This document shows, one piece after another, positions 13,383-43,975 of a DNA stretch of 64,000 nucleotides. The position numbers and the translations under genes are program-made. The stretch's first letter is position 1. Every line of letters begins with the position of its first letter. Location of the stretch: the NCBI GenBank assembly GCA_963729715.1, contig CAVSPA010000018.1, positions 1-64,000 of the forward strand, given 5' to 3'. Under the pieces are notes generated by a model, which worked only from the letters and a program-made list of their open reading frames with translations, was not told the origin of the DNA and ran no database searches. The DNA is from an uncultured delta proteobacterium. Lineage in GTDB: Bacteria; Desulfobacterota; Syntrophia; Syntrophales; UBA2185.

Positions 13383-13826
13383 ATGATAACAAAAGAATCA
13401 TTTATCCGAAATCTAAAAGATAGAGGGCTAAGAATCACTCCTCAAAGACTCGCTATTATTGATGTGTTAGTTGAGAAAGGGCATCTTCATCCCGGGGTGT
13501 ACTATATCCAAAGGGAGGCAAGGAAGAAAAGCAAGGGCCTCTGTGTATCTACTACCTATGCAACTATAAATGAATTTTCCAGGCATGGCATGATCAAGAC
13601 GCTTCAGTTCGAAGGAATTCAGAACCGCTGCGAGGTGAATCTTGACGAGCACATCAATCTGATCTGTGAAACATGCGGAAAGATCGTGGATTACAAAGCC
13701 CCCCTCGCCGTTGAGCAGAATGATGTGAGAAGGAAAACTGGTTTTATCATCACTAACAACAGATTGGAGTATTACGGATACTGTCGAGACTGTAGCCAAG
13801 ATAAAAGACGCCGCCAAGTTTTGTGA
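13383..13826 (+). CDS. perR: Fur-family regulator, PerR-like
   Basis: GLRITPQRLAI, HINLICETCG and YGYCRDC Zn motifs; immediately upstream of katG. Confidence 0.8.
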   Translation: MITKESFIRNLKDRGLRITPQRLAIIDVLVEKGHLHPGVYYIQREARKKSKGLCVSTTYATINEFSRHGMIKTLQFEGIQNRCEVNLDEHINLICETCGKIVDYKAPLAVEQNDVRRKTGFIITNNRLEYYGYCRDCSQDKRRRQVL

Positions 13827-13860
13827 CAAAGGTTGTGCTATTAAATTTTTTTGCAATTAA

Positions 13861-13879
13861 ATCTGGAATGATTCCGGAT
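13861..13879. promoter_or_regulatory. Candidate PerR operator, copy 2
   Basis: Near-perfect palindrome ATCTGGAATGATTCCGGAT upstream of katG. Confidence 0.6.
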
Positions 13880-14006
13880 TTGTTTAAAAAAGGTAAATTA
13901 AAGTCTAAAATGATTTGAAATAAAAATGAATGGAAATTAATCGGAAAAAACGAAGTTCGTATATTAATTGTTAGCTAGATGGGCAGCGAAACACCATTAT
14001 TCATAG

Positions 14007-16244
<2,238 letters not shown>

Positions 16245-16275: not shown

Positions 16276-16404
16276 CAGGATGGGATCCATACGTTGTATG
16301 GGGCAGATGGGAAAATACCGACTGTTCCAGAACCGTCATCTTTTCTACTCATTGGTCTTGGTTTAGCAGGATTGGCAGGTGTGAGGAGAAAGTTTAAAAA
16401 ATAG
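16276..16404 (+). pseudogene. Orphan PEP-CTERM sorting-signal fragment
   Basis: Translates QDGIHTLYGADGKIPTVPEPSSFLLIGLGLAGLAGVRRKFKK*: VPEP, TM segment and basic tail, preceded by an in-frame TGA at 16273. Confidence 0.8.
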
Positions 16405-16429: not shown

Positions 16430-16460
16430 AAGGCAGAGTCAATTGGCTCTGCCTTTTTTT
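16430..16460 (+). terminator. Rho-independent terminator
   Basis: AAGGCAGAGTC-AATT-GGCTCTGCCTT followed by a T run. Confidence 0.8.
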
Positions 16461-16850: not shown

Positions 16851-16961
16851 GGAACTAATGCTTCAGGTTACCCTTTGCACCTCCCTCCAGCTACGTGGGC
16901 GAACTACCGAACTCCCACGGTCGGACTTTAACCGACAAGTCATACGTTTTACACGGCATAC
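16851..16961 (-). mobile_element. Group II intron 5' fragment (relic 1)
   Basis: Reverse complement GTATGCCGTGTAAAACGTATGACTTGTCGGTTAAAGTCCGACC... is nearly identical to the intron start at 44029. Confidence 0.8.
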
Positions 16962-17125
16962 CCTACGAGCCAGCAACTTCAAAGAGAATTTGTCCTGATG
17001 ATTACGGCTCGAAATGCATAACAAAAATACCATGCCGACTAGTGTGACGTCTCACTTATAATTTGTATTTATTGTAATAGTAGCCAGCAGATATCATTCG
17101 GCAATTGCCGTATAACTAATTAAAC

Positions 17126-17528: not shown

Positions 17529-18203
17529 TCACTTTTTCGGTCCGAAGATTTCCAATGAAATGATTCTCCCGTTCTCCCAACCAACCCTGTAGACTTGGAT
17601 GATATCGGCTGGTATTTCGCTAGATGTTGAGCTCGTAATACCCTCGACGGTGTAATAAATTTTGTTGTCGACCTTCTCTGTCTTGATAACATAAGGATCT
17701 CTAACTATCAAAAGACCCATGGCCTTGCGTATAATATCCGAGTTTGCGTATTTGCTGATGACTGCCCTGTATCTTTTCTGCGATGTATGAGCCTGCATGC
17801 ATTCCTTCATTTCAGGAATAATATCGGCGACAGCAATCCCCTTTTTTGCACCCAGGGGAGTGAAGGATACAATCCTTCTATTTTCCCAGCACACCTTATA
17901 TGTCTGGACGATATCACGCGGAATTTCAGATGCTGTTTCCACCGTGACACCCTCTACAGTGTAACAGATTTTCTGCCCTTCTCGATCCGCATTCGTGATA
18001 TAGGGCTCCTTGATGATCAGAAGTCCCATGGCCTGATTGACAATGGCTGGGTCGGCATATTTCTGTATAACGGACTTGTACTCTTTCTGCGATCCGTGGG
18101 AACGCATGCACTCCCTCATCTCGGGGATAACCTCCATCGCGAAGGCATGACCCCACATTCCAAAGAAAAGATACATTATGAAGCAAATCGTAGTTCTCTT
18201 CAT
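17529..18203 (-). CDS. Secreted protein with two tandem ~95-aa repeats
   Basis: Signal peptide MKRTT...HAFA; repeats IPEMRECM...AMGLLIIKEPY...YTVEG...SEIP...WEN and IPEMKECM...AMGLLIVRDPY...YTVEG...SEIP...WEN; RBS GGAGG before 18203. Confidence 0.8.
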   Translation of the reverse strand: MKRTTICFIMYLFFGMWGHAFAMEVIPEMRECMRSHGSQKEYKSVIQKYADPAIVNQAMGLLIIKEPYITNADREGQKICYTVEGVTVETASEIPRDIVQTYKVCWENRRIVSFTPLGAKKGIAVADIIPEMKECMQAHTSQKRYRAVISKYANSDIIRKAMGLLIVRDPYVIKTEKVDNKIYYTVEGITSSTSSEIPADIIQVYRVGWENGRIISLEIFGPKK

Positions 18204-18246
18204 CTTCGTCCACCTCCACTTAATTCCGTTCATCCAAAATCTTCAC

Positions 18247-18801
18247 TCAGCGACTTTTATCTTCCTCATTGAGTTTCTTCAAATAATCCAAGATTTCCTC
18301 ATAGTTTGGCGAGCCATCCTTGGCGTAACGTACGACACCTTTTTTGTCGATGATCACCGTGCGCCGGTTGAAGACGAAGAGCGATCCCGGGGGTATCACG
18401 CCAAAAAAATCACCGAGATAACCGGAAATATTAGAGAGTATCGGAAAGGTCAGTTTCAGGGATTTGGCCCAGTATTTTAGAGTGACAACATCATCGCGGC
18501 TGACGCCCGTGACCCGGGCGTTGAGGGACTCATAGAGGGGAAAGTGCCTCTGATGACCCATCATTTCACCCGATCAGATCGGTGTGAAAGCCGCAGGGAA
18601 AAATGTCATAATCAGATAATACCTCCCATAGTAATCCTGATTGTAGCCGACCAGCCGATCCTCTGTAGAAGACAGGTAAAAGTTTAGTGTCTGCTTGTCT
18701 AGGAGGCTTTCCACCTTGAAAGCGGCTTGGGCATTAGACAGAGTCAGAATACTGCAGACGAGGGTTGCAAGAACAAGAATTGTTTTAGTCTGCTTTTTCA
18801 T
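18247..18801 (-). CDS. Secreted selenocysteine peroxiredoxin (AhpC/TSA, 1-Sec), 184 aa
   Basis: Two same-frame ORFs join across the TGA at 18574-18576 to give FFPAAFTPI-U-SGEM, which is the PxxxTxxC motif with U at the peroxidatic site. Conserved RRTVIID downstream; N-terminal signal peptide. Confidence 0.88.
18551..18563 (-). promoter_or_regulatory. Candidate SECIS hairpin (peroxiredoxin)
   Basis: UGAUG-GGU-CAUCA stem-loop starting 10 nt after the UGA. Confidence 0.6.
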
Positions 18802-18977
18802 AAAAATCTCCTCATTGAAAAGAAACAATGATGCCGTTCCCTGCATCATTAGAATCGCGGGATGATGGAAATGTTTTCAGGAAAAGCCGGGGACTCCTGA
18901 TTCAGAAAATTTACGAGGTCGATGCCTTCACCCGACCACACTTAACCCGGAATCGCTCATCCCGAAAATCTCCCCGC

Positions 18978-19289
18978 TCATTTCACGGGTGTCGGACGCC
19001 CACGAACGTGGAAGCCCCCCTCTATCAGGGCCTTTAAGATGCTGTCGACGTTAGTCACCTTGTCGTCAAAACTTACGACAAAGACCTCTTTCCGGGCGTC
19101 ATAATCGGTGCCTGTCACTCCGTCGACATTTTCCAGGATAACACCTACCCTGGTTTTCTGCACTCAGGTCTTGCAATCGGCAATTTTGATCTCCACCTTG
19201 CTCTCGGCGCCATGTGCGGGTTGAGAAACAGTAAAAGCGATCAGTAAAATCAGTAAAAGGGGGGAAACAAAGACCGGTTTTAATCTCAT
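18978..19289 (-). CDS. Exported HMA/MerP-like selenoprotein with CxxU motif, 103 aa
   Basis: The ATG at 19289 reads MRLKPVFVSPLLLILLIAFTVSQPAHGAESKVEIKIADCKT-TGA-VQKTRVGVILENVDGV...VSFDDKVTNVDSILKALIEGGF. HMA-fold pattern with C39-x-x-U42. Confidence 0.85.
19133..19153 (-). promoter_or_regulatory. Candidate SECIS hairpin (HMA selenoprotein)
   Basis: CCAGGGUA-GGUGU-UAUCCUGG 8-bp stem starting 10 nt after the UGA, with a GGU-led loop. Confidence 0.7.
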
Positions 19290-19315
19290 GACTTAATCCG
19301 TCGGGCCGATCCCTT

Positions 19316-19879
19316 TCAAGCCCAGTCATCCAAATCAATATCCGGGCAAAGCCCCATCATGTTGTCGACCCATTCCTCGTTGTCCTTGATCCACTGCCTG
19401 GCATCGGCCCGTGAAATCATGTTCTCCTTGACCAGGTTCATGGCGGACTCAAGTTTGCCTCCGCATAAGCAGAATTGCTTGACGAGTGTCGTAAGCGCTG
19501 GTCTCTTCTTCTGCAGACCGCTACGAGCTATGGTATGAATCGTTTTCTTTTCGTCTATCCAGTTTGGACCGAGGTCTTCGACCTTCTTGGCATATTTGGT
19601 GTAGTAAGCTTTCTGTTCCGGTAATGTCGCGCTTAATGTGGCGTCGTACTTCCCCTCAACTATGCCTTTCCACATGTCATCAACGGTGGTCTTAACAAGA
19701 TTGACCTTTATGCCTAACTTGTCCTCGAGGATGTACTTCAGCATGTATGATTTTGCAATGGAATCCTTTGTATCGATATAAGCCACGGTGACCTGCGGTG
19801 CCGCCGCAATTGCGGCGGAGACCGTCATGACAATCATGAACGCGGCAACTATGCTTATCTTCAATAGATAACGCCTCAT
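19316..19879 (-). CDS. Glycine-betaine (OpuAC/ProX)-like binding-domain protein
   Basis: Signal peptide; ILEDKLGIKVNL, MWKGIVEGKYDATLSATLP, VEDLGPN and ARQWIKDN match OpuAC segments, but the protein is short (187 aa). Confidence 0.7.
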   Translation of the reverse strand: MRRYLLKISIVAAFMIVMTVSAAIAAAPQVTVAYIDTKDSIAKSYMLKYILEDKLGIKVNLVKTTVDDMWKGIVEGKYDATLSATLPEQKAYYTKYAKKVEDLGPNWIDEKKTIHTIARSGLQKKRPALTTLVKQFCLCGGKLESAMNLVKENMISRADARQWIKDNEEWVDNMMGLCPDIDLDDWA

Positions 19880-19951
19880 AATAACCTCCTTTCCAAAATA
19901 TTTTTCTTTCGGTTGAGAAATCCAACCGGACATCCCACCTAGGAAGTAAAT

Positions 19952-21124
19952 TTAGGTTGCCCTGAACTCGATGGTATCGCCATTGCCGAGGTAAGCCTTG
20001 TCCTTTGACCGGAAACGGGCCGTTCCCTGGACGATGGGGTATCCCGCTTCGATGAACTTCTTGGCGCAGGTGATCCCTGTGCAGTGGTTGCAGCCAACCT
20101 TCTCGAACTCGTACTTCCTCATGGAAAGGACCAGGTCATCGTATTTGGGATCCCAGTCCTCGAAGGGCGAGATGTGCAGCCCGCCGTAGATGCCGTAGTT
20201 TTTCTTGTACTTGATGGTGTCCTTGGCCGTAGCGGCGAACTGGATAATCCCCTGGTGGCAGCAGCCCGTCACGGAGACCATCCCCGCGTCCTTGACATTG
20301 AAGTACCACGATTGTTCACCATAGACCCGGCATATGATGGGAATGGCGAAGTTGTAAATAGCGCAACCCGAGAAGAGAGGAGTCAGTCCCGGCTTGGTAA
20401 CCACTAGCTTACCCCGATGACCGCTGTCCTTGATATACTGCATGCCCTCCTGGTAGAACCCTTCAGGAATGTAAGTAATTATCTCCGGGTTATACTTATA
20501 CACCACGGGCAGACCCCAGAAGTGGTCGAAGTGTTCATGGGTTACCATGAATAAATCTATTTCCTTACGCTCAAGCATCCGGTCAATCCCCTCGCGCTTA
20601 TAAGCCTGATCCATCCAGTTGTAAGACCATCCAGCATCCTGGAGTATCTTCTTCTTCGTGCCGTCCAGGAGTTCTACTTCGATGAGGCAGGAAAACCCTC
20701 CGGCGTTCTCAGGATGAACGGCATTTTCGATTTGAAACTGCCAGGCCTTGTCTAAATCACGGGGCAGCCACCGCTTGATCTCCTTGATACCCTTCTCGTA
20801 GGAACCCTTCCCAAGTTGCCCTTTCGGTTCTGCAAAAGGCGGCCAATTATACGTGTACTGGTTGACCAGCAATCCCCCGGATCCCTTGATGTCACCCATG
20901 AGTACTTTATTCTCGAACCAACTCGTCTCTGAAACATTCGTTACCTTAACGCTCCTGCATTCCCCAATATCAATATTTTTGGGCGCGACTCTCGCGAAAT
21001 GACTCTTACGCCAGGGGCTGTAAGAGTATATGCCCATGGCCCCAATAGTGCCTGTAACTCCTCCCACGATAAGACCCTTGACAAAATCGCGCCGGTTCAG
21101 GCCTTTCTTTTCTTCTTCTGCCAT
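19952..21124 (-). CDS. Tat-signal MBL-fold metallo-hydrolase (COG1237-like)
   Basis: Twin-arginine LNRRDFVK; THEHFDH, TGCCHQG, GGLH, NHCTG. Confidence 0.85.
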   Translation of the reverse strand: MAEEEKKGLNRRDFVKGLIVGGVTGTIGAMGIYSYSPWRKSHFARVAPKNIDIGECRSVKVTNVSETSWFENKVLMGDIKGSGGLLVNQYTYNWPPFAEPKGQLGKGSYEKGIKEIKRWLPRDLDKAWQFQIENAVHPENAGGFSCLIEVELLDGTKKKILQDAGWSYNWMDQAYKREGIDRMLERKEIDLFMVTHEHFDHFWGLPVVYKYNPEIITYIPEGFYQEGMQYIKDSGHRGKLVVTKPGLTPLFSGCAIYNFAIPIICRVYGEQSWYFNVKDAGMVSVTGCCHQGIIQFAATAKDTIKYKKNYGIYGGLHISPFEDWDPKYDDLVLSMRKYEFEKVGCNHCTGITCAKKFIEAGYPIVQGTARFRSKDKAYLGNGDTIEFRAT

Positions 21125-21185
21125 AATTAGTCCTCCTTCAGTTTAGGAGAAATTTTCCCGAAGAGGGGAAAATCTGTTTTAAAAT

Positions 21186-21311
21186 TCAGCTTATTTTGGT
21201 TAGCATCCAGTTCCATTTTGCCATGATGGGCAGGGCCCATACAACGGCAAAATAAACCAGAATGCCGAGAACGATGCCCACAAAAATGCCAAACTTATAT
21301 TCTGTGCTCAT
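21186..21311 (-). CDS. Small single-pass membrane protein, 41 aa (not in ORF track)
   Basis: RBS GGAGGAG then MSTEYKFGIFVGIVLGILVYFAVVWALPIMAKWNWMLTKIS*; fills the operon gap. Confidence 0.75.
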   Translation of the reverse strand: MSTEYKFGIFVGIVLGILVYFAVVWALPIMAKWNWMLTKIS

Positions 21312-21323
21312 TTCATCTCCTCC

Positions 21324-22595
21324 TTATGTAATGGCGGTTTCTGATGTCTTGACCTTCTTCCATCCCGGCCAGTTGTCCATAAACCAGTGATTGATGAGCA
21401 TGATGTTGATAAACCAGATGGTGGGAATCATAGGGAATTGCTGGGGATGTGAGTAGCCCTTCTGGGTGCCCAAGACCAGGTGGCTGGTGTTGTAGTAAAG
21501 CCAGTAGACAAAAAGTCCGCCCATGATGGCGATCAGGGTCCGGATAAGCCAATTAACAGGAATACTGTACTTCCTCGGCCAGTTATTGCAGTAGAACTTG
21601 ACAAAGAGTGCCGGAATGAGGAAGAAGACAATCGTTTCACCCACATGGAGCCAGCGCCAGTCCGGGGCTGCATCCCGCCTGGTTCCCCGGATAGCTGGGC
21701 CCCACCACAATTCCTGTGCAAAGTAAAGAAACAGAAAACAGCACCAGGCAATAGCGATGATGCCGAAGAACGCCACAAGCCGACGGGTCCAATCATGCTT
21801 AATGACCCGGAAGGGGTAACGATCCCAGATGCTTTCGTACATCCAGACAATAACGGTGCAGCACATGATCCAAGCCACGTGGAAATTGCCGCTTACCGTG
21901 TCGGCGAAATTCTCCCAGTAGGGCGGCGCGATGGAGCAGAAGTACTGCCAGGGATAATAGAGGATGCCCATGTGGGGGTGCATGGTGCAGAAATAGACAA
22001 TGGTACTTATAAAGAAGGTGACAATGAGAACGGTCGTACCCAGGACCGGTTGTTTAAGGTTCTGCCAGGGGGCCATCTCCATCGCCACCGGCCACGCGGG
22101 GCTCAGCCAGGAGGCAATGGCAGCAAACATGAGGCAGGCCAGGGCCGAGTACTCGATAGCGAAGAACTCCGTGATCCCCGGCAGCTTCATCAATTGGTGA
22201 GAATTAAAGTAGGCCATCGACAAGTTTCCCAGAAGTCCTTCAAAGAAACCCTTGATGAGTATCATAAGAATGATCACGGAAACAGCCGTCATCGCGACTC
22301 CTTTCAAAACAGGGTGCCAGTTTTCCAACTGTTGTCTCCTGAAAGGCCAGTAATGATAAATATATACCATCCAGATTAACATGATCAGGAGCCAACGTGT
22401 GTACATGTAGCCCACGTAAGGGGTATACATCCGCAGCCATCCTCTTGGATCTTGAAAGATCCACCATGTAACGTAAAAAATAGCGAGAATAAAAATTGTG
22501 TTCACAATCTGCGGTATTGGTGCAGGCCATCTGGGGACGAGCGTCCGCTCTTCAAGATATCCTTCACCATAACGCTCCTCGACTTTTCCCTCCAT
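21324..22595 (-). CDS. Polytopic Trp/His-rich membrane protein of unknown function
   Basis: About 10-12 hydrophobic segments, repeated W-P motifs (YWPF, RYPF, NNWP, DNWP); RBS AGGAGG. Confidence 0.8.
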   Translation of the reverse strand: MEGKVEERYGEGYLEERTLVPRWPAPIPQIVNTIFILAIFYVTWWIFQDPRGWLRMYTPYVGYMYTRWLLIMLIWMVYIYHYWPFRRQQLENWHPVLKGVAMTAVSVIILMILIKGFFEGLLGNLSMAYFNSHQLMKLPGITEFFAIEYSALACLMFAAIASWLSPAWPVAMEMAPWQNLKQPVLGTTVLIVTFFISTIVYFCTMHPHMGILYYPWQYFCSIAPPYWENFADTVSGNFHVAWIMCCTVIVWMYESIWDRYPFRVIKHDWTRRLVAFFGIIAIAWCCFLFLYFAQELWWGPAIRGTRRDAAPDWRWLHVGETIVFFLIPALFVKFYCNNWPRKYSIPVNWLIRTLIAIMGGLFVYWLYYNTSHLVLGTQKGYSHPQQFPMIPTIWFINIMLINHWFMDNWPGWKKVKTSETAIT

Positions 22596-22654
22596 ACCAA
22601 ACCTCCTTTCTCTTTTTATGAAGTTGGACGATTGCCAAGAATGGTTATCTTTTG

Positions 22655-22978
22655 TCAGTTACCTTTTGTCTCCTCCCGTGAGAAGATCTCCCTGGCAATA
22701 TCCATTTTACTTTTTTCCTTGACATCAATTCCTCTTTTAAGAGCCTCTTCCATAAGTAACTCACCGGATTCCGAAAGCAGGGGATAGCAGGTCTCAAAGG
22801 AATTGAAATAGTTGTATTCACTTTCTTCTCGAAAATCAGTGCGCGTGCCATCAGCTATTAAGTCGGCGATCTCTCTGATCAGATCTTTCGTCAAAAAGTT
22901 CCTTCTCCTTTTATCGAATGTTATCAACTTTTCCCCTTCTTTAATCTTTGGTGGAGATAGACCGTGCCATACTATCAA
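22655..22978 (-). CDS. Hypothetical protein, 107 aa
   Basis: TTG start overlapping the stop of the upstream NifX-like gene; fills the operon gap. Confidence 0.55.
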   Translation of the reverse strand: MIVWHGLSPPKIKEGEKLITFDKRRRNFLTKDLIREIADLIADGTRTDFREESEYNYFNSFETCYPLLSESGELLMEEALKRGIDVKEKSKMDIAREIFSREETKGN

Positions 22979-23304
22979 TCCACTATATCTCCACGGTTCA
23001 ATTTACGCATAATGTATCGATGAAAAACCGCGTCAACACCGCCAATGACGTTATCAATGAACCGGACGTTATATTTTCTCATCAACTCCTGGCAATCATC
23101 CTGGGTGCCCCCGCATATGACTACCTCAACACGCATGCGGCTGAGGAGGGCGGTTTGATCCTCCAGTTGTAAGTCCCCTATGGGAATAACCCCCCTCTCT
23201 TCAATAGTCCCGATGTTATTGACGGTGAACACGACTATTTCAGAAGAGTGATCATATCTGGGTGCGACTCTTCCCTTTATCTGGCAAATGGCAATTTTCC
23301 TCAT
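22975..23304 (-). CDS. NifB/NifX-family (FeMo-co-binding domain) protein
   Basis: KIAI...RVAPRYD...VEVVICGG pattern. Confidence 0.8.
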   Translation of the reverse strand: MRKIAICQIKGRVAPRYDHSSEIVVFTVNNIGTIEERGVIPIGDLQLEDQTALLSRMRVEVVICGGTQDDCQELMRKYNVRFIDNVIGGVDAVFHRYIMRKLNRGDIVD

Positions 23305-23316
23305 GGTTCAGGATTT

Positions 23317-23332
23317 TGCACAGTATATGCCA
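23317..23332 (-). promoter_or_regulatory. sigma54 (-24/-12) promoter
   Basis: TGGCAT-ATACT-GTGCA on the minus strand, upstream of the operon and next to an enhancer-binding protein (bEBP) gene. Confidence 0.6.
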
Positions 23333-23492
23333 TGTGCTACGAATTAAATAATTCACAATAAAGTCAGCTATTTGAGAATATGAGACAATTTAGAGAAGCA
23401 TAAAACGACATTGCAAAATGTTGCAGGATGAAACATCAGAAAGAGTGCCTATGAGCAGAGGCTTATAAGGGTGGGCATTGGAACGTTTCAGA

Positions 23493-23517
23493 CACAATGC
23501 AACAATGTTGCATTGTG
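23493..23517. promoter_or_regulatory. Perfect 25-bp palindrome, candidate enhancer site
   Basis: CACAATGCAACA-A-TGTTGCATTGTG; related TGCAAAATGTTGCA at 23412-23425. Confidence 0.6.
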
Positions 23518-23522
23518 CAACA

Positions 23523-24884
23523 TCAGTTGCTTTGTTTTGAAAAGAGGTTATGCTTTTTCATCTTCCGCCAGAGAGTTGTTCTGTTCATTTGGAGTGCTCT
23601 GGAGGTTTCGCCCCGTCTCCACCCATGTGCTTTGAGCGCCACGAGGAGCTTCTCTTTTTCATTGAAGGAGGCCCCTTGCTTGGAGACAATATCCACATTG
23701 GATGATGAAAACAGCGGGGATGAATTATTTTTCTCAAAAAGATAGAGTGGGAGAAGGTCTTTATCCATTTTTCCGCCTCGGTAAAGGATCATGGCGTGTT
23801 CAATGATGTTTTTGAGTTCCCGGACATTGCCGGGGTAGGGGTAATTAAGAAGAAGTACCATGAAATCGGATGTAACAATCTTAATTTCCTTTCCAAGAAG
23901 TCTCGCCTGCTCTGCCAAAAAATGATCCACAAGCAGAGGGATGTCCGTAGATCTTTCCCTCAGAGGCGGGATTTCGACCTCGACCACCCTCAGACGATAA
24001 TATAAGTCCTGCCGGAAGATCTTTTCCCGGGTCATGTCGGGAAGCTTGCGATTTGTGGAGGTGATGACCCTCACGTCGACAATAACAGGACGGGTAGACC
24101 CAAGGGGATAGAATTCTTTTTCATCCAGGACCTGTAGAAGCTTGGCTTGGAGGTCGTTGGGAAGCTCACCAATTTCGTCGAGGAAGATGGTTCCCCCTTC
24201 AGCCGTCTGGAATCTTCCAAGCTTATCATGCTTCGCATCGGTAAAGGCACCTTTTTTGTATCCGAAAAGTTCTGATTCGAGTAGTTGCGATGGAAGAGCA
24301 GCACAGTTGACTTTGATAAAAGGACCATCTCGGCGATGACTGGCATTGTGAACGGCCTTGGCAAAGATGTCTTTGCCGGTCCCCGTTTCACCGAGAAGAA
24401 GAACAGGGGCATCCGTCGGGGCGACTGTGTTCAGGAGATCGAAGATTCTTAGGATCTTTTCGTCCTTGCCGATGATATCTCCGAAAGAGTGCAACCCCCG
24501 AATCTCCTTTTCTAGGGTGACACGGATCGAGTCATCTTGAAAAGACTCGACACCGCCGATGATCCGCCCCTGATCATCCTGAAGAATCGCAACAGTGATA
24601 TCAACGGGGATCTCTTTGTTGTGCCTGTTCAAAATCCTATTCCGGACCTTGACAATCTTGGAGCCGGTCTCCATAGCCATCCTGAGATAGCACCCCCTCT
24701 GGCAGAGTTCGGTCCGGAAGATCTCATAACATTTACGGCCCAAAGCCTCTTTCTTCGAAAAGCCGGTGATCTTCTCCGCTTCTTCGTTGAAGCAGTTGAT
24801 ATTCCAGCCCATGTCCACGGTGAATATTCCCAAGGCCACACTATTCAGTATTTTCCTGCTATCGAATTCTCTTTTCATAAACAC
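23523..24884 (-). CDS. PAS-domain sigma54-dependent activator
   Basis: PAS N-terminus, GETGTGKD, ESELFGYKKGAFTDA, FLDEIG, PGNVREL, C-terminal Fis HTH. Confidence 0.95.
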   Translation of the reverse strand: MFMKREFDSRKILNSVALGIFTVDMGWNINCFNEEAEKITGFSKKEALGRKCYEIFRTELCQRGCYLRMAMETGSKIVKVRNRILNRHNKEIPVDITVAILQDDQGRIIGGVESFQDDSIRVTLEKEIRGLHSFGDIIGKDEKILRIFDLLNTVAPTDAPVLLLGETGTGKDIFAKAVHNASHRRDGPFIKVNCAALPSQLLESELFGYKKGAFTDAKHDKLGRFQTAEGGTIFLDEIGELPNDLQAKLLQVLDEKEFYPLGSTRPVIVDVRVITSTNRKLPDMTREKIFRQDLYYRLRVVEVEIPPLRERSTDIPLLVDHFLAEQARLLGKEIKIVTSDFMVLLLNYPYPGNVRELKNIIEHAMILYRGGKMDKDLLPLYLFEKNNSSPLFSSSNVDIVSKQGASFNEKEKLLVALKAHGWRRGETSRALQMNRTTLWRKMKKHNLFSKQSN

Positions 24885-24973: not shown

Positions 24974-26917
24974 GTGAGTTGTGACACAGAAAAACCGGGA
25001 GGTAGAATGACCTTGGCGACCTTGCGTGACCTTCAGCCGTCGGGCATCGTAAATTATCCTGGAATCGGTTTCCCAAATTTCATCGAAAACATTTTAATCA
25101 GGATTTCCTTCGAGCCTGTAATCAAGGAAAACATCGGGTGGATCGGTACAGCGTACCGCACGGGCCGCAAGAGAAGCTGGACATTCCGGATCCGGGGTTT
25201 CAAAGGGATCTACTGCCTGACTTTTCAGGGTTTCGAGGAGGAAGCAGCGGGTTGGCATCATGGCGTCTTTGAGCTTCAGTATTTCCCGAAGTCCGATGAG
25301 GCCATTCTGGATACTTTTTCCGTCCGGGAAAATCTTCTGCGCCTGGATCCGTTTTTTGATAAATTGGTCCGGCGTGCTCCGGAAGAGGAAGATCCTCTGG
25401 TGTCACAATTCATGGTGGGGAACATAATCTTGACCTGCGATGCCGGCGAGAAAAACCTCTTTCTTTCTCTCTGGGCACCGGTCAGATGGCGTGAGATCCG
25501 GCGGGCAGGCCTCTACATGAACGCACATGACGGGTCGCCGGTGGAGGCCGTTCCTCCGGGGGGCACTGACAGAAATGTTCCCTCTTTCGCCCTTGCTTGG
25601 CCATTCTTCGACAGACTCGTTTTGACCCTTGCCTGCCAAATGAGGCGACCTCCCCTTTGTGTAATACTGAAGCGCAGAAACTGGCCCGTTTGGATCATAG
25701 CCGGAGGCAATGATTGCGTGCCGTCTGAGGAAAATTTTACACTACAGAATTTTCTTTCCGTTGGATTCGGTCCGTGGTCCAAGAATAAGACCGAAGATCC
25801 ACGTGTCAAATGGGCAATGGACTTTTTCCCGGCGGATACCGGTTTCTCCGCATCGTCTAAAACAAGAGTCGTTTGGTCCGTGACACCTTGGAATCCTTTA
25901 CCTAAAAGGGGGAATTCACTATGGTGGAAAGCACCCTTCTGGAAGGAAAAGGGCAGAATGAGAGGATTTCAAACCTTGGGGATTCATTATAGACCCCCGC
26001 TTCTGGTGATCACGGGATTCTTGGGGAGCGGCAAGACGACACTGCTCAACCAGATCGTCGAGTATAAAGCCCTTTCGTCTTACAAGTTCATAGCCGTTAT
26101 CCAGAATGAGGTGGGTGATGTCGATGTAGACAGCAAGCTTATGGACAGCGCTTATTGCATCACGTCCTTGGATGAAGGTTGCGTCTGCTGCACCCTGCTT
26201 GGAGAGTTCCGTCAGGCAGTCCGGAAGATCTGCATCGAATATGAACCGGACTTAATCATTATCGAGACCACAGGTGTGGCCGATCCCCACAGCATCCTTG
26301 CCGCGATCCCTGACCTCGAACCATTTGTCCGCTTTGATACTGTTGTATGTGTTGTGGACGGTCCGAATCTTGAATATATCTTGAAAGACTATCCTGTTGC
26401 ACGATCTCAAATTGAATATGCCAGCTTGATCCTCCTCAATAAGAAGGATCTTATGGATGCAGAAACCCTGGCAAAAGCGGAGAGGATCATCTGTGCAATC
26501 AATCCTCATGCAACTATTCTTCATACGATCTATGCCCGTGTGAATCCAGGCCTTTTTTTCGCCATTGAGGAAAATATTGGTTTGCCAATGATGAAGAGAG
26601 ATCGGATATCACTTGAAGCAACAGATTTGGACGCCCAGCAGGTTCGTGCTTTTACACTCATATTACCCGGGGACCTGAAGGAACCTTGTTTCATGCAGTT
26701 TCTGGATGATCTTCCCGATTCGGTATACCGCCTGAAAGGCGTCATTAAAATAAAGGGCCGGGAGCAACCGCAGCTGCTTCAATACGTGGTCCACCGCTAT
26801 GAAATCTCCAACTTTTTGGAAAAGAACATGGAGCCCAACACTCTCGTCTTTATCGGCCGGAATCTCGACGAAAATGCCTTGAGGAAAGATTTCCTGAGAT
26901 GTCTTGCTGAAGAGTGA
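24974..26917 (+). CDS. COG0523/CobW-type GTPase with long N-terminal extension
   Basis: GFLGSGKTT, GCVCC, ETTG, NKKD and YRLKG in the C-terminal half; first ~340 aa unrecognised; start uncertain. Confidence 0.85.
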   Translation: MSCDTEKPGGRMTLATLRDLQPSGIVNYPGIGFPNFIENILIRISFEPVIKENIGWIGTAYRTGRKRSWTFRIRGFKGIYCLTFQGFEEEAAGWHHGVFELQYFPKSDEAILDTFSVRENLLRLDPFFDKLVRRAPEEEDPLVSQFMVGNIILTCDAGEKNLFLSLWAPVRWREIRRAGLYMNAHDGSPVEAVPPGGTDRNVPSFALAWPFFDRLVLTLACQMRRPPLCVILKRRNWPVWIIAGGNDCVPSEENFTLQNFLSVGFGPWSKNKTEDPRVKWAMDFFPADTGFSASSKTRVVWSVTPWNPLPKRGNSLWWKAPFWKEKGRMRGFQTLGIHYRPPLLVITGFLGSGKTTLLNQIVEYKALSSYKFIAVIQNEVGDVDVDSKLMDSAYCITSLDEGCVCCTLLGEFRQAVRKICIEYEPDLIIIETTGVADPHSILAAIPDLEPFVRFDTVVCVVDGPNLEYILKDYPVARSQIEYASLILLNKKDLMDAETLAKAERIICAINPHATILHTIYARVNPGLFFAIEENIGLPMMKRDRISLEATDLDAQQVRAFTLILPGDLKEPCFMQFLDDLPDSVYRLKGVIKIKGREQPQLLQYVVHRYEISNFLEKNMEPNTLVFIGRNLDENALRKDFLRCLAEE

Positions 26918-27264
26918 AGGATGTTGGCTATCGTATCTGTATCCGTAATAAAAATGCGCATTTACACGGCAAGTTACATAAAATTAACAAAACCCTGCTT
27001 ATGAAAAAAGACCAGCAATGAGCATAATCGCATATGCAGTTATGCATACCATTTGGCATAATTAAAAAAGGATGAGCTTATATCTATTTTGCAGATTTCA
27101 AAGGAAAGTGGATAGATTGCGGGATAGGACTAAGAGAGGATTTTCGATTCCAATAAATTTTGGACAGGAAAGAAGCAATTGACGATCCTCAATCGACGGT
27201 CACATTTCCAACTCTTTTTTCATGCACTGATATCTACAAATTTGCATGGCTTCAGACTCGTAGG

Positions 27265-27345
27265 CTGTGCCGTGTAAAACGTTCTCGGTTAAAGTCTGAC
27301 CCCGTGGGTTCGGTGGTTCGCCTACATAGCTGGAAGGAAGTGTCA
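27265..27345 (+). mobile_element. Degenerate group II intron 5' fragment (relic 2)
   Basis: CTGTGCCGTGTAAAACGT...TCGGTTAAAGTCTGAC...GTTCGCCTACATAGCTGGAAGGAAGTGT aligns with 44029 onward. Confidence 0.7.
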
Positions 27346-27523
27346 ATGGCAGAATTCTAAGTTAACATGCGGTGCGAGAATCGAGAGCACGTCAAATTCG
27401 TGCGTCTCATATGAAACATAAAACGTCGTGCCCCTATAAACTCCTATCCTAATCTATTGGCGGATTATTCGAATGACCTGGCCCTATCAGATCGAATAAA
27501 TCCCCTGCGGACCACTCAGAATA

Positions 27524-28709: not shown

Positions 28710-29477
28710 GTGTCACAGATTCTTTATAAGAAGGAAGATCATATCGCTTATATTTCTTTAAATAACCCTGACAGTTTAAATGCATTGAATCTGGAAATGG
28801 CGAAAGAATTTGAAGCTATCTGGGTGGATTTTCGGGATGACAAAGAAATGTGGGTGGCCATTTTAAGTGGCGAAGGCAAGTCTTTTTGTGCCGGTGCGGA
28901 TGTAAAAAAGATGGAAAGGGGCCGATGGCAGTTCCGGCAGTCCCTCATTTTAGGGGATTACAGTGTATCCTCCAGACGTCATAACATATGGAAGCCTATC
29001 ATCGCCGCAGTCCATCGCCACGTCTATGGGGCAGGACTTTTATTGGCCCTGGAATCAGATATCAGAATTGCATGCGATGATGCCTTATTTGGAATACCGG
29101 AAGGGAAGGTGAATGTGCCCACATTATTTGCGCCGTTTGCTTCCAGATATATGCCGAGAGCGATAGCTTGCGAGTTATTGTACACAGGAAGGCCAATAGA
29201 TGCACAACGTGCATATCAGGTGGGTCTGGTGAACAAGGTTGTATCCAGAGACCAGCTGATACCCACTGCCACAGAAATAGGAAAACAAATTTGTGAAAAT
29301 GGGCCATTATCAATTTGGGCTACCAAGGAACTATTCTGCAGGGGTGAGGATATGAGCTATGAGTGTGCTCTGGCCCTCATTGAACATATCGTGCCGCCCA
29401 TCTTCAACTCTGAGGATTCCGTCGAGGCTAAACGAGCATTTCTTGAAAAAAGAAAACCTGTATGGAAATTAAAGTAA
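28710..29477 (+). CDS. Enoyl-CoA hydratase/isomerase family protein
   Basis: SFCAGADVK, KPIIAAV, FGIPE, AFLEKRKP. Confidence 0.92.
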   Translation: MSQILYKKEDHIAYISLNNPDSLNALNLEMAKEFEAIWVDFRDDKEMWVAILSGEGKSFCAGADVKKMERGRWQFRQSLILGDYSVSSRRHNIWKPIIAAVHRHVYGAGLLLALESDIRIACDDALFGIPEGKVNVPTLFAPFASRYMPRAIACELLYTGRPIDAQRAYQVGLVNKVVSRDQLIPTATEIGKQICENGPLSIWATKELFCRGEDMSYECALALIEHIVPPIFNSEDSVEAKRAFLEKRKPVWKLK

Positions 29478-29582
29478 GGAAGAGACATGGACGGAGTTTC
29501 AAATCTTCAGGGTCACGAATTGGTATAACGACGCTGAAAATCTTCACCGTCCTTAAATGCAGCCAGCAAGGAGATAATCATC

Positions 29583-30317
29583 ATGTACACTATTAGACCA
29601 CTCTTACTCTCCACCGTGGAAACCAATCGAAGTATGATGACGTACACTTTGTACTTCAACAAGACCGATTCCAATCCGATGGTATGTTGGTACATCAATG
29701 CCGATGGAAAACATATATTGGTGGATACGGGAATATCCGTCGAGGAACACAAAAAGATAGCAAATGTTCCTATGACTGATGTCCAGTCCTTTGAGGCGGC
29801 GCTTCAGAGTATCGGATTAAAGCCTGAAGACATCGATATTGTCATACAAACGCATTTACATTATGACCACTGCGCCAACACGGCAAAATGTACGAATGCC
29901 AAGGTTGTTGTGCAAGAGAAAGAATTAATGTTCGCATATTCCCATGATCCGGTATTTCATCATTTATACGTGAGGAAATATTTTGAGGGGCTGAATTATT
30001 GGCTGATTGACGGAAAAATGGAAATTGTGCCCGGGATCGAGGTTATTCCAATGACGGGACATACCCCGGGATGCCAGGCAGTATCGGTAAAGACGCCGCA
30101 AGGGTTAGCGGTTATCAGCGGTGTTTGTGCAATTAAAGAAAATTTTTTCCCCCCGCCCAAACTCGCAAGCATCTGGCCTGTGTTGATTCCTACATTTCAT
30201 ATAGATGCGAAAAAATCATTCTATGACTTGTTGTATATAAAACACTTGGCAGACATTTTAATCCCTCAGCATGATATCGGCTTTGCATCCATGAAAGAGA
30301 TACCTGCTAACAAATAA
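29583..30317 (+). CDS. AttM/AiiA-type lactonase family MBL hydrolase
   Basis: LVDTG, THLHYDH, GHTPG, IPQHD. Confidence 0.85.
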   Translation: MYTIRPLLLSTVETNRSMMTYTLYFNKTDSNPMVCWYINADGKHILVDTGISVEEHKKIANVPMTDVQSFEAALQSIGLKPEDIDIVIQTHLHYDHCANTAKCTNAKVVVQEKELMFAYSHDPVFHHLYVRKYFEGLNYWLIDGKMEIVPGIEVIPMTGHTPGCQAVSVKTPQGLAVISGVCAIKENFFPPPKLASIWPVLIPTFHIDAKKSFYDLLYIKHLADILIPQHDIGFASMKEIPANK

Positions 30318-30340
30318 TCTACAATCTTAGGAGGCTGAAG

Positions 30341-31066
30341 GTGAACAAAGTACATACAAATGTGATGGATGCGATCACTGATATCACAGACGGAAGTTCA
30401 GTTATGATGCAAAGCTTCATCGGTCCGCTGGGAGTGGCGCAAACCTTAATAGAAAATTTAACAAAATTAGGCTCGAAGGATTTGACACTCATTGTAACCG
30501 CTAACATCAGTCATGCCGGAGGCTATACAATCCATCCACAGTTTAAGCCTTTCATTGCGCCGAGAATTCTTATTGAAGCTGAGCGGGTGAGAAAAGTTAT
30601 TCTGGGCTGGGGAGTGGGCGCCCAGTTTCCAGGAGAAGAAAGGTCCCCCTGGATAGGTAGAGAGGAAAAACTCGATTATGAATATTTGCCAATAGGAGTA
30701 ATGGCACACCGTATACGTGCTGCCGGAACCGGGATGGGAGCCTTTTACAGTCCTGTTGGACCCGGCACTTGGTTTGCGAAAGGCAAAGAAGTGCGAGTGA
30801 TTAATGGACAGGAATACCTCTTGGAATTTCCACTCGGAGCTGACTTTGGATTTGTCAGGGCCAGTAAGGCAGACAAGCTGGGAAATCTTTACTACAAGCT
30901 CTCAGAACGCATGTACTCTCCGCTGATTGCCAAAGCATGCAAAACGACCATAGCTGAAGTCGATGAAATTGTTGAACCCGGCGAAATTGCTCCTGACCAG
31001 ATTATTACACCCGGTATTTATATAGATAGAATTGTGCTTACTGATAGAAAGGTGGTGCCCCAGTGA
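30341..31066 (+). CDS. Family I CoA-transferase subunit A
   Basis: RIRAAGTG, ADKLGNL, EVDEIV, IITPGIYIDRIV. Confidence 0.9.
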   Translation: MNKVHTNVMDAITDITDGSSVMMQSFIGPLGVAQTLIENLTKLGSKDLTLIVTANISHAGGYTIHPQFKPFIAPRILIEAERVRKVILGWGVGAQFPGEERSPWIGREEKLDYEYLPIGVMAHRIRAAGTGMGAFYSPVGPGTWFAKGKEVRVINGQEYLLEFPLGADFGFVRASKADKLGNLYYKLSERMYSPLIAKACKTTIAEVDEIVEPGEIAPDQIITPGIYIDRIVLTDRKVVPQ

Positions 31067-31749
31067 AAAAGACCCTTGATAAACATGAAATGGCCAGACG
31101 TATGGCACAAGAATTAAAGGATGGGGACGTAGTAAACTTAGGAATAGGAATACCATCTCTGGCTTCCAGTTATTTGCCAAAAGACATACAGATAATATTT
31201 CATGTAGAGAACGGCATTATTGGTTTTGGAAGAGTGCTTGGCAAGCAAGAGGTAGAATCGATGGATTATTATCTGGCAAATGCCGGGGGCCAGTTCATTG
31301 CCCCGATACCCGGTATGTGTATAGTCGATTTTGCCGAGTCTTTTGACGCTGTCCGGACGGGAAGAGTAAATATCACCATGTTAGGCGCTTATCAAGTCTC
31401 AAAAAGTGGTGATATAGCAAGCTGGACAGTTAGTCAAACGGTGGATGAGGTCTCTCCCTCGTCTCTAACGCTCGGCGGCGCCATGGATATGCCGATCGGG
31501 CCTAAGAAGGTCATTATTGGGATGAAACATTTAACCAATGATGGAAAACCCAGGATAGTAAATAAATGTGATTTGCCATTGACAGCAGTGGGTAAGGCTA
31601 AACTGATAATTACAGATGTGGCTGTTATTCAGGTTACACCCGCGGGATTGGAATTGTTGGAAATAGCACCAGACTGGGATCCGGAAGACGTTCAAGCGAT
31701 AACTGAACCACCTTTGATAATTTCACAAAAAATAAAAAAGATGTTTTAG
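31063..31749 (+). CDS. Family I CoA-transferase subunit B
   Basis: VNLGIGIP, ENG with catalytic Glu, GGAMD. Confidence 0.9.
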   Translation: MKKTLDKHEMARRMAQELKDGDVVNLGIGIPSLASSYLPKDIQIIFHVENGIIGFGRVLGKQEVESMDYYLANAGGQFIAPIPGMCIVDFAESFDAVRTGRVNITMLGAYQVSKSGDIASWTVSQTVDEVSPSSLTLGGAMDMPIGPKKVIIGMKHLTNDGKPRIVNKCDLPLTAVGKAKLIITDVAVIQVTPAGLELLEIAPDWDPEDVQAITEPPLIISQKIKKMF

Positions 31750-32048
31750 AAAATTATCCTTATCTTAAATTTCAAGCTATTGGTGGGTACAATCCGTCGA
31801 TTGCATATTGTGCGACAGAAAATCTTGCCGACGATTTATAGGGATGCATGGGAATGAATTCGCCATTCATATGTATTTAGAAGAAGCAAACTGTTGCTTC
31901 TTATCCCCTTGGGGACTTCACGGCGGATTTTTGACAATCTTCACTATGGAAGCTAATTGGTACTCTGATTAATATCGGAGAAGACGTTAACATAAAAAAC
32001 AGACGAAATCGGATTGCTAAACAGTACTATCTGAAAGGGGGTGTTACT

Positions 32049-32141
32049 GTGTTGTCAGGTGCTCAATTGATAGCCATTTTACACGGCCTTATATTAGTTG
32101 CAGCTGGAGTGATCGGTCTATGGATAAAGAAGCGTTTGTAA
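32049..32141 (+). CDS. 30-aa membrane peptide upstream of symporter (not in ORF track)
   Basis: GTG start, MLSGAQLIAILHGLILVAAGVIGLWIKKRL*, purine-rich RBS-like sequence upstream. Confidence 0.6.
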   Translation: MLSGAQLIAILHGLILVAAGVIGLWIKKRL

Positions 32142-32162
32142 CTTAAGGAGGTGAATTGAAAA

Positions 32163-33740
32163 ATGGTCATTGCCATATTTTTTGGAATTCTTATATCGTA
32201 CTTGGTGATAGGGTTCATCGCCTCGCGCCACACTAAAGGAGCCGATGAATTCTATGTAACAGGGAGACGATCCGGAATAATTCTTGTTCTCGGAGGATTT
32301 GCCGGAACTTGGATCAGCGCTCTGGGCACTCTTGGGTATCCTGGCATGTCCTATTCACAGGGTATAGGATTAGTGGCTATTTGGGGAGCTCTCCCGGGAT
32401 TCTTGTTGGCGGCTTTCCTTATTGTGCCTCAATTGTATAGGAGCGGTTCCTGGACGCTTTTTGATTTCTTTGAATCTCGTTGGCAGGACAAGAGGTTAGC
32501 CGCTGTCGGCGTCTGCGTCATGTTTTTCGGCATGTTTCCTTATTTTGTTGCGCAAATTATGGGGGCTGCAACTTTATTATCGACACTTACAGGGTTAAGC
32601 TATCAAACTATGCTCTATATAGTGTGCGCAACATTTTTCCTCTTAACAATTGTAGGAGGCGCCTGGTCTGTAACGGTTACAGACACTGCCATGCTGCTCG
32701 TCAAATTAAGTCTTGTAGCATTCATTCTTCCTGCTGCACTTGCTTTTTTTGGCGGCATTAATAAAGTCACCGTCGATATGTATGCTTCCTCGCCACAGCG
32801 TTTTAGTCTCACTGGTTCTCTGCCTCCTCTTTATGTTTTGTCCTCATGTCTAATCTGGTTCTTTGGCATGTTCGCTGCGCCACACCAGGCGTCACGTATT
32901 ATGATTGCGAAAGATACGAGAACAGCCGTCGCCGGAGCTATATTAGCGTTGACTTTAGGAACTGTTATTGTCTGGGCCTTGCATTTCATGGCAAGCGGTT
33001 TATGGGTCATTACACACGACGTTAAGCCGTCTTCCAGTGCCCTCCCTTATCTCTTTGCGCATTTGCCAAGCACGGCAATAGGCGCTTTAGGAATATCGGC
33101 CTTATTTGCTGCTGCTTTGTCAAGTGCAACGGGGATGCTATTGACTTTGAGCATGGGAGTCGGGAGAGATGTGGTAAAGCGTTTTTTTAAATCAGACTTG
33201 CCTGATAAAAAGCTATTGAGCATTACTCGCTGGGCAGTACTGGGGTTCACTCTCGCTGTATTGGCCACATGCTTGGCTCAACCGGAAGCAATTGTCAAAT
33301 TTGCAGAGTTAGGGGGTTCGATATTCGCGTGCACGTTCTTTGCTCCATTGTTTTTCGGTGCCAACTGGCGGCGTGTTACAAAAAATGCAGTATTCTGGTC
33401 GATGATTTTGGGTGGCGGGATAGACATAATCCTCTGGATTGGGTGGCGCTTTATGGGTATGCCGTTGCTGTTTGGAATTCAGCCCGTTCTTTATGGCATC
33501 ACGGCCTCGATTTTGACACTCGTCATAATAACCTTAAAATCTGATCCCACGCCTGCGGAAATTAAGGAGTTTGAACGAATCACGACGAGAATGGAAGTAG
33601 CTACAGTTGCAGTAGGCGCCAACCAATCGAATGCAGTAATTAAGACGAGGCGGATTGACGGCTATGATTGGACGTGTATTCTGTCCATTGTCATAGGATT
33701 GACTTTAGCCATAGGAGGTACGGTTATTCTTCCACCCTAA
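32163..33740 (+). CDS. Sodium:solute symporter (SSS family)
   Basis: EFYVTGR, TLFDFFESRW, GGAWSVTVTD, AAALSS; many TM segments. Confidence 0.92.
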   Translation: MVIAIFFGILISYLVIGFIASRHTKGADEFYVTGRRSGIILVLGGFAGTWISALGTLGYPGMSYSQGIGLVAIWGALPGFLLAAFLIVPQLYRSGSWTLFDFFESRWQDKRLAAVGVCVMFFGMFPYFVAQIMGAATLLSTLTGLSYQTMLYIVCATFFLLTIVGGAWSVTVTDTAMLLVKLSLVAFILPAALAFFGGINKVTVDMYASSPQRFSLTGSLPPLYVLSSCLIWFFGMFAAPHQASRIMIAKDTRTAVAGAILALTLGTVIVWALHFMASGLWVITHDVKPSSSALPYLFAHLPSTAIGALGISALFAAALSSATGMLLTLSMGVGRDVVKRFFKSDLPDKKLLSITRWAVLGFTLAVLATCLAQPEAIVKFAELGGSIFACTFFAPLFFGANWRRVTKNAVFWSMILGGGIDIILWIGWRFMGMPLLFGIQPVLYGITASILTLVIITLKSDPTPAEIKEFERITTRMEVATVAVGANQSNAVIKTRRIDGYDWTCILSIVIGLTLAIGGTVILPP

Positions 33741-33819
33741 TGTTATGACAATATTACTTGAAAAAGTTCGGGGCCCCTCGGACCTGTTTTTCAATGGAGA
33801 AACACGAAGGAGCAGAAAG

Positions 33820-34707: not shown

Positions 34708-34742
34708 TCAGACTTTCTGAAAAAATTACGGGGTGACAAAAA

Positions 34743-37259: not shown

Positions 37260-37337
37260 CCTATCTCGATGTATTCATACTTTGAATTTTATATGCGAGA
37301 TCCCGTACCTACAAAATGTATTGCTTCTGGATTTCCA

Positions 37338-38321: not shown

Positions 38322-38531
38322 TGATTCCTCCTTGGCTTTTATATTTGGCCGTTTATGTCAGTATGCTTTTTTACTACAATTCAAAAGAATTCGCGTCACT
38401 TTGCCGGAAGCTGCACCGGCACTGCTTCTCCTTTCGCGCGGATCTCACCTTCCGCAGATAACGTGACGCTCACAATGATTTTTCGTTTTCCCGTTCCATT
38501 TGAACAATGCCGGCTGGACGCTTAGAGATGC

Positions 38532-39224: not shown

Positions 39225-39410
39225 CAGGTCTCTCCTTGAACATTATAATATTTCTCTATAGGCGGCACTGAACGGGTACCGGTGTAATCTTGGCGTGATT
39301 CTTCTCTCTTTCCGGGGGTGATCCCGGACGATTTGAGACTGCTTATAATGCCGTATCCCCCTTGAATATCATACACCACACCGTTAGACTGATCAGCGTT
39401 TCCTCTTACA

Positions 39411-39842: not shown

Positions 39843-39878
39843 TTCCTTAATCCTGCCTGCGATTCCTCTGCGGGGCGC

Positions 39879-40127: not shown

Positions 40128-40143
40128 AGTGCAAAAGACCTCT

Positions 40144-41025: not shown

Positions 41026-41141
41026 CGCTCACCTTTAGTTGCTTGGTTTCGTATCCTGCATTATGGGCTCCATTTTATTCCAAATGGAAATTATTTCACC
41101 CGCCACCTTGTCCTGCGCATATTCAATTCGCTTAAGCCTCA

Positions 41142-43431: not shown

Positions 43432-43473
43432 GCTTCAATCTCCTTTTCAAATTAATATTATTTTCTTTTTACG

Positions 43474-43956: not shown

Positions 43957-43975
43957 TCTTCTTTCTCCTGGACGC

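Follow-up and report, generated by a model that had tools for sequence, protein, structure and literature searches.

We analysed a 64,000-nucleotide stretch of DNA (the window) from an uncultured delta proteobacterium of the Syntrophales lineage UBA2185 (assembly GCA_963729715.1, contig CAVSPA010000018.1, positions 1 to 64,000) and find that it carries a four-gene core that is independent of selenium. The core consists of a mini-protein, a membrane protein (MEM), an enzyme of the metallo-beta-lactamase fold with a twin-arginine translocation (Tat) signal (MBL), and a protein with an unnamed N-terminal domain of about 320 amino acids (NTD). This module is apparently undescribed and widely shared among bacteria. 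An original prediction for this region had joined nine co-oriented, closely spaced genes and a PAS sigma-54 activator into one extracytoplasmic selenoprotein system. The nine open reading frames (ORFs) and the activator are all present on the minus strand, with gaps of -4 to 176 bp; the two selenoproteins among them are lineage add-ons and not part of the core, and one core gene, encoding the NTD, lies outside the span that had been considered. The source genome comprises 3.76 Mb in 19 contigs, and its nearest named relatives are metagenome-assembled genomes (MAGs) of the Syntrophaceae and Syntrophales.

Gene order was compared in two sets of loci: the best 80 of 351 species-genome stretches encoding a MEM relative, and the best 80 of at least 223 confirmed metagenome loci anchored on MBL. 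The MBL gene lies directly downstream of MEM in 80 of the 80 genome loci and, reciprocally, MEM is upstream of MBL in all 67 metagenome loci with more than 700 bp of upstream sequence. The neighbourhood search with MEM and MBL as anchors that had been proposed as a check therefore finds conserved synteny for the core. The genome loci include the NTD in 70 cases, a G3E GTPase domain in 61 and the mini-protein, found with an iterated hidden Markov model, in 62; many of the cases lacking the NTD or the mini-protein are at contig ends. Accessory genes are far sparser in the same 80 loci (repeat protein 21, NifX 12, OpuAC-like protein 10, peroxiredoxin 5, HMA protein 4). Conservation is strong in these nearest loci, with MEM 68-90% and MBL 61-96% identical, and the MEM-MBL pairing is kept down to 27% MEM identity; the NTD is present in 32 and the mini-protein in 29 of 33 fetched module loci. 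A deeper set of MEM relatives was drawn from 44 of 201 genomes of the order and 35 of 401 of the phylum. Records of the core span Desulfobacterota, Alphaproteobacteria, spirochaetes and SAR324, and its cultured carriers include Malonomonas rubra DSM 5091, Pseudovibrio exalbescens DSM 16456 and Rhodospira trueperi ATCC 700224. Four of its proteins are without a family, and MEM has no plasmid match. No description of the module was found in the literature searched, most subscription journals being outside its coverage, in agreement with the earlier remark that the combination was not recognisable as a described pathway.

The MBL gene (19952..21124, minus strand) encodes the Tat-signal enzyme that had been predicted, its MBL class borne out by a Lactamase_B match and by the fold. 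It belongs to the Tflp/tw9814/TM1679 branch, which we take to be the COG1237-type MBL. The predicted model (pLDDT 81.9) superimposes on 7dck, 2p4z and 3h3e with Z scores of 24.3, 21.3 and 20.1, well above other MBLs; phosphodiesterases and nucleases follow as the next structural neighbours. Its HEHFDH, GCCH, GGLH and CNHCTG motifs are kept in 33-34 of 34 module MBLs. Both Tflp-type cysteines (the motif-4 cysteine and the one after the motif-5 histidine) are present in 34 of 34, and two more cysteines in 33 of 34. TatC is encoded in the genome.

MEM (21324..22595, minus strand) has ten predicted helices, arranged as five repeats ending in [WY]P-like motifs; HHalign comparison among four tested repeat units gave E-values of 7e-6 to 2e-4 for five of the six pairs. 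It had been described as rich in histidine and tryptophan, which holds for tryptophan (6.9%) and fails for histidine (2.6%). The 41-amino-acid peptide encoded just downstream (21186..21311, minus strand) exists as a gene, and it is the split-off C-terminal helix of MEM: the helix is found in 80 of 80 loci, fused in 64 and as a separate ORF in 16, and we rejected the peptide as a subunit type of its own. We found 466 MEM homologues, and MEM itself matches no Pfam and no NCBIfam family at E 0.1. Some homologues bear the label "AAT amino acid transporter", an AAT/APC name that comes from the source records and that we rejected; MEM matches no transporter profile. Foldseek gave no match to the MEM model at E 0.001 or better, and ActC, which appeared in weak rows at TM 0.16-0.18, was discarded as a relative. 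A wide structure search with the model, in which a LeuT/APC fold was also considered, found no convincing natural fold, which is not proof of a new one.

A quick-method tree of MEM, built from 51 fetched loci plus the genome's own paralogue, minus one locus with a partial MEM, places 34 module rows apart from 18 that lack the enzyme (SH-aLRT 100). In 15 of 18 loci of the enzyme-less clade a gene for acyl-CoA handling lies no more than 2.5 kb away, versus 4 of 113 module loci (9 of 113 when measured from the module edges); one further apparently solitary locus was removed, being a module locus cut at a contig end (L045). By their Pfam labels these neighbours are CoA-transferases, acyl-CoA ligases, acyl-CoA mutases and beta-oxidation genes. 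The acyl-CoA enzymes beside this sister clade suggest a carboxylate permease. An enzyme-less paralogue in the same genome (G000:C10:81215-82534), 23% identical to MEM, heads a cluster of CoA-transferase and beta-oxidation genes. This paralogue is a candidate for a new fatty acid permease family, and the clade as a whole a candidate uptake route for fatty acids in syntrophs. Residues conserved in the module clade only lie predominantly on the putative outer side of MEM (18 of 21; binomial p 7e-4), which fits a docking site for a Tat-exported partner, though it is suggestive only. H317 is invariant in both clades, and the module-specific H206 and H208 map to the putative outer face.

The remaining core genes are those of the NTD and the mini-protein. 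The NTD gene (25007..26917, plus strand) is fused to a COG0523/CobW G3E GTPase with a GCVCC motif, and a 636-amino-acid form is on record. Assignment to the COG0523 G3E GTPases is borne out by the cobW G-domain (E 1e-43), the CxCC motif and CobW_C; scores for the named subfamilies (CobW, ZigA, YjiA) are 98-122 bits, against NCBIfam cut-offs of 332-600. The protein shares the G-domain with CxCC and the CobW_C domain with the COG0523 metallochaperones ZigA, CobW and YjiA, as these are presented in the accessible text of PMC11672702, and differs from them in the added 320-residue NTD. Outside the subclade of the window the NTD stands alone in all 22 module loci, the G3E domain occurring in 9 of 33 loci, all within the subclade; the GTPase is thus the optional part. 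Of 32 stand-alone NTDs, 22 have a tail with at least three Cys/His residues, as would suit a metal-handling protein. The NTD matches no Pfam family, a PDB sequence search returned chance matches only, and the Atlas gave no usable match. We regard the NTD-CobW protein as a candidate cytoplasmic maturase and a likely metal-delivery gene. On this view the module supplies a COG0523 metallochaperone with a client that is defined by genome data, and it shows the constant partner to be an unnamed domain and not the GTPase. The mini-protein (22655..22927, minus strand), with an RR-x-F[LF] motif and no hydrophobic segment, probably starts at TTG 22927 to give 90 residues; its longest ORF extends to 22978.

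The activator (23523..24884, minus strand) has Pfam PAS and Sigma54_activat (E 9e-68) domains and a C-x8-C-x3-C motif (C52, C61, C65) that recurs in 13 of 17 full-length neighbours. It is predicted to be an Fe-S redox sensor of the OrpR type: according to the accessible part of PMC8359166, three PAS cysteines of OrpR are tied to a redox-sensing Fe-S cluster. The Desulfovibrio vulgaris system of OrpR and its orp operons, as given there, is alike in the PAS sigma-54 architecture, the cysteine motif and a NifX-like neighbour; the palindrome and the target genes differ. Allowing up to three mismatches, the window contains no copy of the OrpR site GGGCGYRTTTTGCGCCC. Instead, a 17-bp palindrome, TGTTGCA-N3-TGCAACA, occurs at 23506..23522 and, 87 bp away, at 23419..23435 as two candidate activator sites, a count of 2 versus 0.07 expected for a pattern derived from these very sites. 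They are the only copies genome-wide, and related repeats occur in the aligned loci. The -24/-12 element that had been predicted (TGGCA-N7-TGC; 23318..23332, minus strand) lies 13 nt from the NifX start codon. As a pattern alone it is not above chance (4 found, 2.66 expected), yet it is upheld by position, TGG-A and TG being invariant there across all eight aligned loci, of which three have GC and five GA at -12; the eight loci were selected for the activator-NifX layout, and two come from one genome. At 23304-23318 only 13 nt separate the -12 element from the NifX ATG, with no clear ribosome-binding site, and a sigma-54 transcript starting here is possibly leaderless. Pattern scans for sigma-70 promoters (19 versus 15.1 expected) and terminators (17 versus 11.0) were near chance, the latter placing no minus-strand terminator-like site between the MBL and peroxiredoxin genes, and an Rfam scan of 10000-32000 found no family at gathering score. 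Many loci outside the Syntrophales have, instead of the sigma-54 activator, a PAS protein (25 of 80) and a GntR-family regulator (28 of 80) upstream (for example, L039:1395-2699 and L070:8877-9617); the best matches of the latter are NanR, PdhR and LldR, below cut-off, and we count this regulator in favour of the import reading given below.

The original prediction was right that two genes are hidden by in-frame UGA, and the HMA protein and the peroxiredoxin (Prx) are credible selenoproteins judged by their codons. The secreted HMA/MerP-like protein with a CxxU motif (18978..19289, minus strand) has its UGA at 19164-19166 (CKT-U), with a hairpin at about 19133-19153; the secreted Prx with a PxxxTxxU motif (18247..18801, minus strand; AhpC-TSA) has its UGA at 18574-18576 (PAAFTPI-U). 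In distinct homologous stretches the HMA codon is TGA in 21 of 23 and Cys in 2, with conserved flanks, and a same-genus homologue of 93% identity has TGT (Cys) at this position. The Prx codon is TGA in 16 of 16 stretches, and 5 of 5 close homologues keep it; more distant homologues have no stop. As candidate selenocysteine insertion sequences, a consensus 7-bp stem lies 11 nt past the HMA UGA in 21 sequences (z -1.85; the Cys form, L009, keeps a weaker stem) and a hairpin follows the Prx UGA (folding z -2.97). The genome has selA, selB and selD over cut-off and the selenocysteine (Sec) tRNA gene selC, so the check on Sec machinery came out positive. Prx scores 67 bits with the AhpC/TSA profile PF00578 (cut-off 26) and 34 bits with the PrxU equivalog (cut-off 270); the HMA protein scores 33 bits (E 5e-8) with MerP TIGR02052 (cut-off 92.55), and there are no mer genes among the scanned neighbours. 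Since mature Prx has no cysteine besides its Sec, the CxxU protein may be its reductant.

The pair is nonetheless poorly coupled to the module, and the predicted selenoprotein system with selenium-dependent metal delivery did not survive. Beyond the genome-locus counts given above, HMA occurs in 7 and a close Prx in 3 of the 80 metagenome loci, and two genomes with a 90%-identical MEM have only distant, stop-free Prx matches. In a survey of 40 of the 80 module genomes chosen for taxonomic spread, selA was over cut-off in 31; the nine that gave none over cut-off comprise one planctomycete MAG and eight alphaproteobacterial records, of which three carry no MAG label, with completeness not given. 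A paralogous HMA-Prx pair in the same genome (G000:C5:367452-368482) has cytochrome bd and an FAD disulfide oxidoreductase as neighbours, and 16 kb of its surroundings are free of module genes; six other relatives have the pair without a module gene in 1.5-kb flanks; and in a single-contig genome (G005) it lies about 330 kb from the module. A third Sec-HMA copy is present at G000:C6:159189-159479, and the secreted Sec-HMA protein was matched in 32 of 61 relatives.

Building on the observed gene set, conservation, motifs and MBL fold class of the core, we tentatively favour, at somewhat less than an even chance, an exported, oxygen-sensitive Fe/Cys MBL docked outside a five-repeat MEM channel, through which its acid product enters the cell, with a redox sensor of the OrpR type in control. 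The NTD protein, through its Cys/His tail or fused CobW GTPase, would load metal in the cytoplasm, and the RR-motif mini-protein might escort the enzyme or time its Tat export. An uncleaved Tat helix would keep MBL anchored outside, where it would release a small acid from an external substrate for import through MEM, which would pass a carboxylate or other weak acid. The activator would turn the operon on at low redox potential, and the appended, pre-existing pair of secreted Sec-HMA and Sec-Prx would guard the periplasm from peroxide. A bolder version is doubtful but worth stating: MEM could found a new family of single-chain five-repeat channels, of which the enzyme-less branch would serve syntrophs and sulfate-reducing bacteria as an unrecognised permease for short-chain fatty acids, and the other branch would be capped outside by an Fe-S MBL, matured by an NTD chaperone class and a Tat-signal-mimic protein, with the product channelled straight into the cell.

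Several observations weigh against this import reading. The MEM model has a mean pLDDT of 75.5, with large outer loops below 50, and its best structural match, a designed five-inner-helix barrel (Z 9.0, root-mean-square deviation 6.7, 240 aligned), falls at a Z in the range deemed uninformative for helical bundles. The placement of the MEM termini inside comes from positive-inside counts, the topology being itself a prediction. Residues common to both clades also lean outside (14 of 22), a difference from the module-specific set that is not significant (Fisher p 0.16). A complex prediction for MEM with MBL, at a score of 0.06 (mark 0.32), speaks neither for nor against docking. With just 22-24% identity between the clades, a transport function in one need not hold for the other; the acyl-CoA comparison used queries mostly from enzyme-less loci, which are kin and not independent, and some module loci had been fetched twice. 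The closest solved MBL relatives point both ways, one being titled a phosphodiesterase and one ferredoxin-like. No substrate-specific gene recurs near the module; the genes around it, largely of the Fe-S, thiol, sulfur and TonB kinds, would suit a redox role equally well.

Such a role is the alternative we take most seriously, although we consider it on the unlikely side: the core would be a membrane-bound redox enzyme, its exported Fe-S or di-iron MBL reducing or oxidising periplasmic sulfur species, peroxide, NO or O2, with MEM as electron conduit to the membrane. Tflp itself has been classed as an iron-dependent oxidoreductase (accessible text of 10.1101/2020.04.16.045138), and the four near-invariant active-site cysteines (GCCH and CNHC in 33 of 34), the OrpR-type sensor, the neighbouring NifU, Mrp, rhodanese, C_GCAxxG, CCG Fe-S, YeeE-type and ferritin genes and the module-specific H206 and H208 all agree with it. 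The conduit is harder to accommodate, for only H208 and H317 are invariant in module-clade MEM, whereas the usual di-haem b conduit needs more than two histidines, and among the 80 loci there is no recurrent polyferredoxin or cytochrome subunit. The sister clade, moreover, is tied to acyl-CoA metabolism, and such helpers would equally be required by a hydrolase that is sensitive to oxygen. Transport in the opposite direction would match the same architecture and conservation, direction not being readable from sequence: MEM would carry a metabolite or cofactor precursor out of the cytoplasm, and the outer MBL would then modify or destroy it, as efflux-coupled detoxification or envelope chemistry. 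The phosphodiesterases and nucleases that form the next structural class after the Tflp branch would suit this, but CoA-activating enzymes, which the enzyme-less clade adjoins, usually follow uptake, and no biosynthetic genes recur in the flanks; we judge export improbable.

Least probable, and by our estimate very unlikely, is a single selenium-dependent complex of all nine gene products in the periplasm, with Sec-HMA delivering metal to MBL. Both UGAs are credible Sec codons, the genes are co-oriented with short gaps, and in three loci of the lineage (L010, L011 and L014) the Prx orthologue lies, after rearrangement, on the opposite side of the module yet still adjacent, which speaks against a purely accidental link. 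Set against these are HMA in 4 and Prx in 5 of 80 genome loci, the lack of a close Prx orthologue in genomes with 90%-identical MEM, nine of 40 module genomes, cultured isolates included, without selA over cut-off, HMA-Prx pairs without a module and a same-genus HMA with Cys. Tat substrates are normally metallated before export, which also speaks against delivery by Sec-HMA.

Three further accessory genes complete the array. The NifX/NifB-like small protein (22975..23304, minus strand) is a genuine ORF; as a NifX family member it matches PF02579 only below cut-off (E 0.0066), and it also matches the MrpORP C-terminal domain (E 2e-6). The secreted OpuAC-like protein (19316..19879, minus strand) does match OpuAC in Pfam, but the orphan binding protein of the prediction is only half of one, a single lobe whose roughly 162 mature residues match only two pieces of the 256-268-residue domain. 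No ABC permease or ATPase was found among the flanking genes, and we rejected the gene as a sign of betaine transport. The secreted protein with two repeats of about 100 residues (17529..18233, minus strand; likely start ATG 18203) belongs to no family and occurs in 21 of 80 genome and 26 of 80 metagenome loci. In line with the export signals that had been predicted, the last five of the nine proteins have N-terminal hydrophobic stretches.

Around the module, a dispersed repeat of about 115 nt occurs at 16851-16969, 27257-27349 and 44024-44140 and on contigs C3, C7 and C13; the module is flanked by two copies in inverted orientation (79%), and in Rfam the repeat weakly resembles group II intron D1-D4-4 (at E 4e-4, short of the gathering score). 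A Fur/PerR-family regulator and a catalase-peroxidase gene, katG (13383-16244), converge on the module's end. Because katG has 63% GC, versus 41-52% for module genes, its composition suggests recent acquisition. A short ORF at 16294-16404 is an apparent gene remnant whose tail is presumably PEP-CTERM-like, and is followed by a terminator-like hairpin at 16430-16455. On the other side lie an acyl-CoA cluster (28710-36008: crotonase, lactonase-like MBL, CoA-transferase, SSS transporter, thiolase) and an orp-like cluster (36288-44004: a cytoplasmic MBL akin to that of the module, CCG Fe-S, DUF1847, NifU, Mrp, NifX and DUF134).

Measured against known systems, the selenium part is ordinary in kind. 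The accessible text of PMC13188914 lists a bacterial Sec-peroxiredoxin (PF00578, TxxU) and a putative mercuric transport selenoprotein (C/SxxU), which Prx and HMA resemble in motifs and Sec position. They differ from these in that both are secreted, Prx lacks a resolving cysteine and the two form a two-gene unit; a secreted Sec-Prx without resolving cysteine beside a secreted CxxU protein is worth testing. For the enzyme, the nearest comparison is Tflp (2P4Z), tw9814 (7DCK) and TM1679 (3H3E), with Z scores of 20-24, deviations of about 3 Å over 225-235 residues and shared HxHxDH, GCxH, GGxH and HCTG motifs. Tflp is described in the accessible part of 10.1101/2020.04.16.045138 as a di-iron protein that has two cysteines close by and, in the reduced state, an Fe-S centre. 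The window MBL is only 21-24% identical to the three and is set apart by its Tat signal, a further pair of conserved cysteines, some 70 inserted residues and a fixed membrane partner. As a whole, the core recalls hydrolase-permease pairs such as GlpQ/GlpT and the weak-acid channels of the FocA type, sharing with them the proposed arrangement of an outside enzyme with product uptake, or of five-fold helices with a conserved histidine. It has no detected sequence relationship to either, and differs in its single-chain five-repeat membrane protein, dedicated maturase and RR-motif helper.

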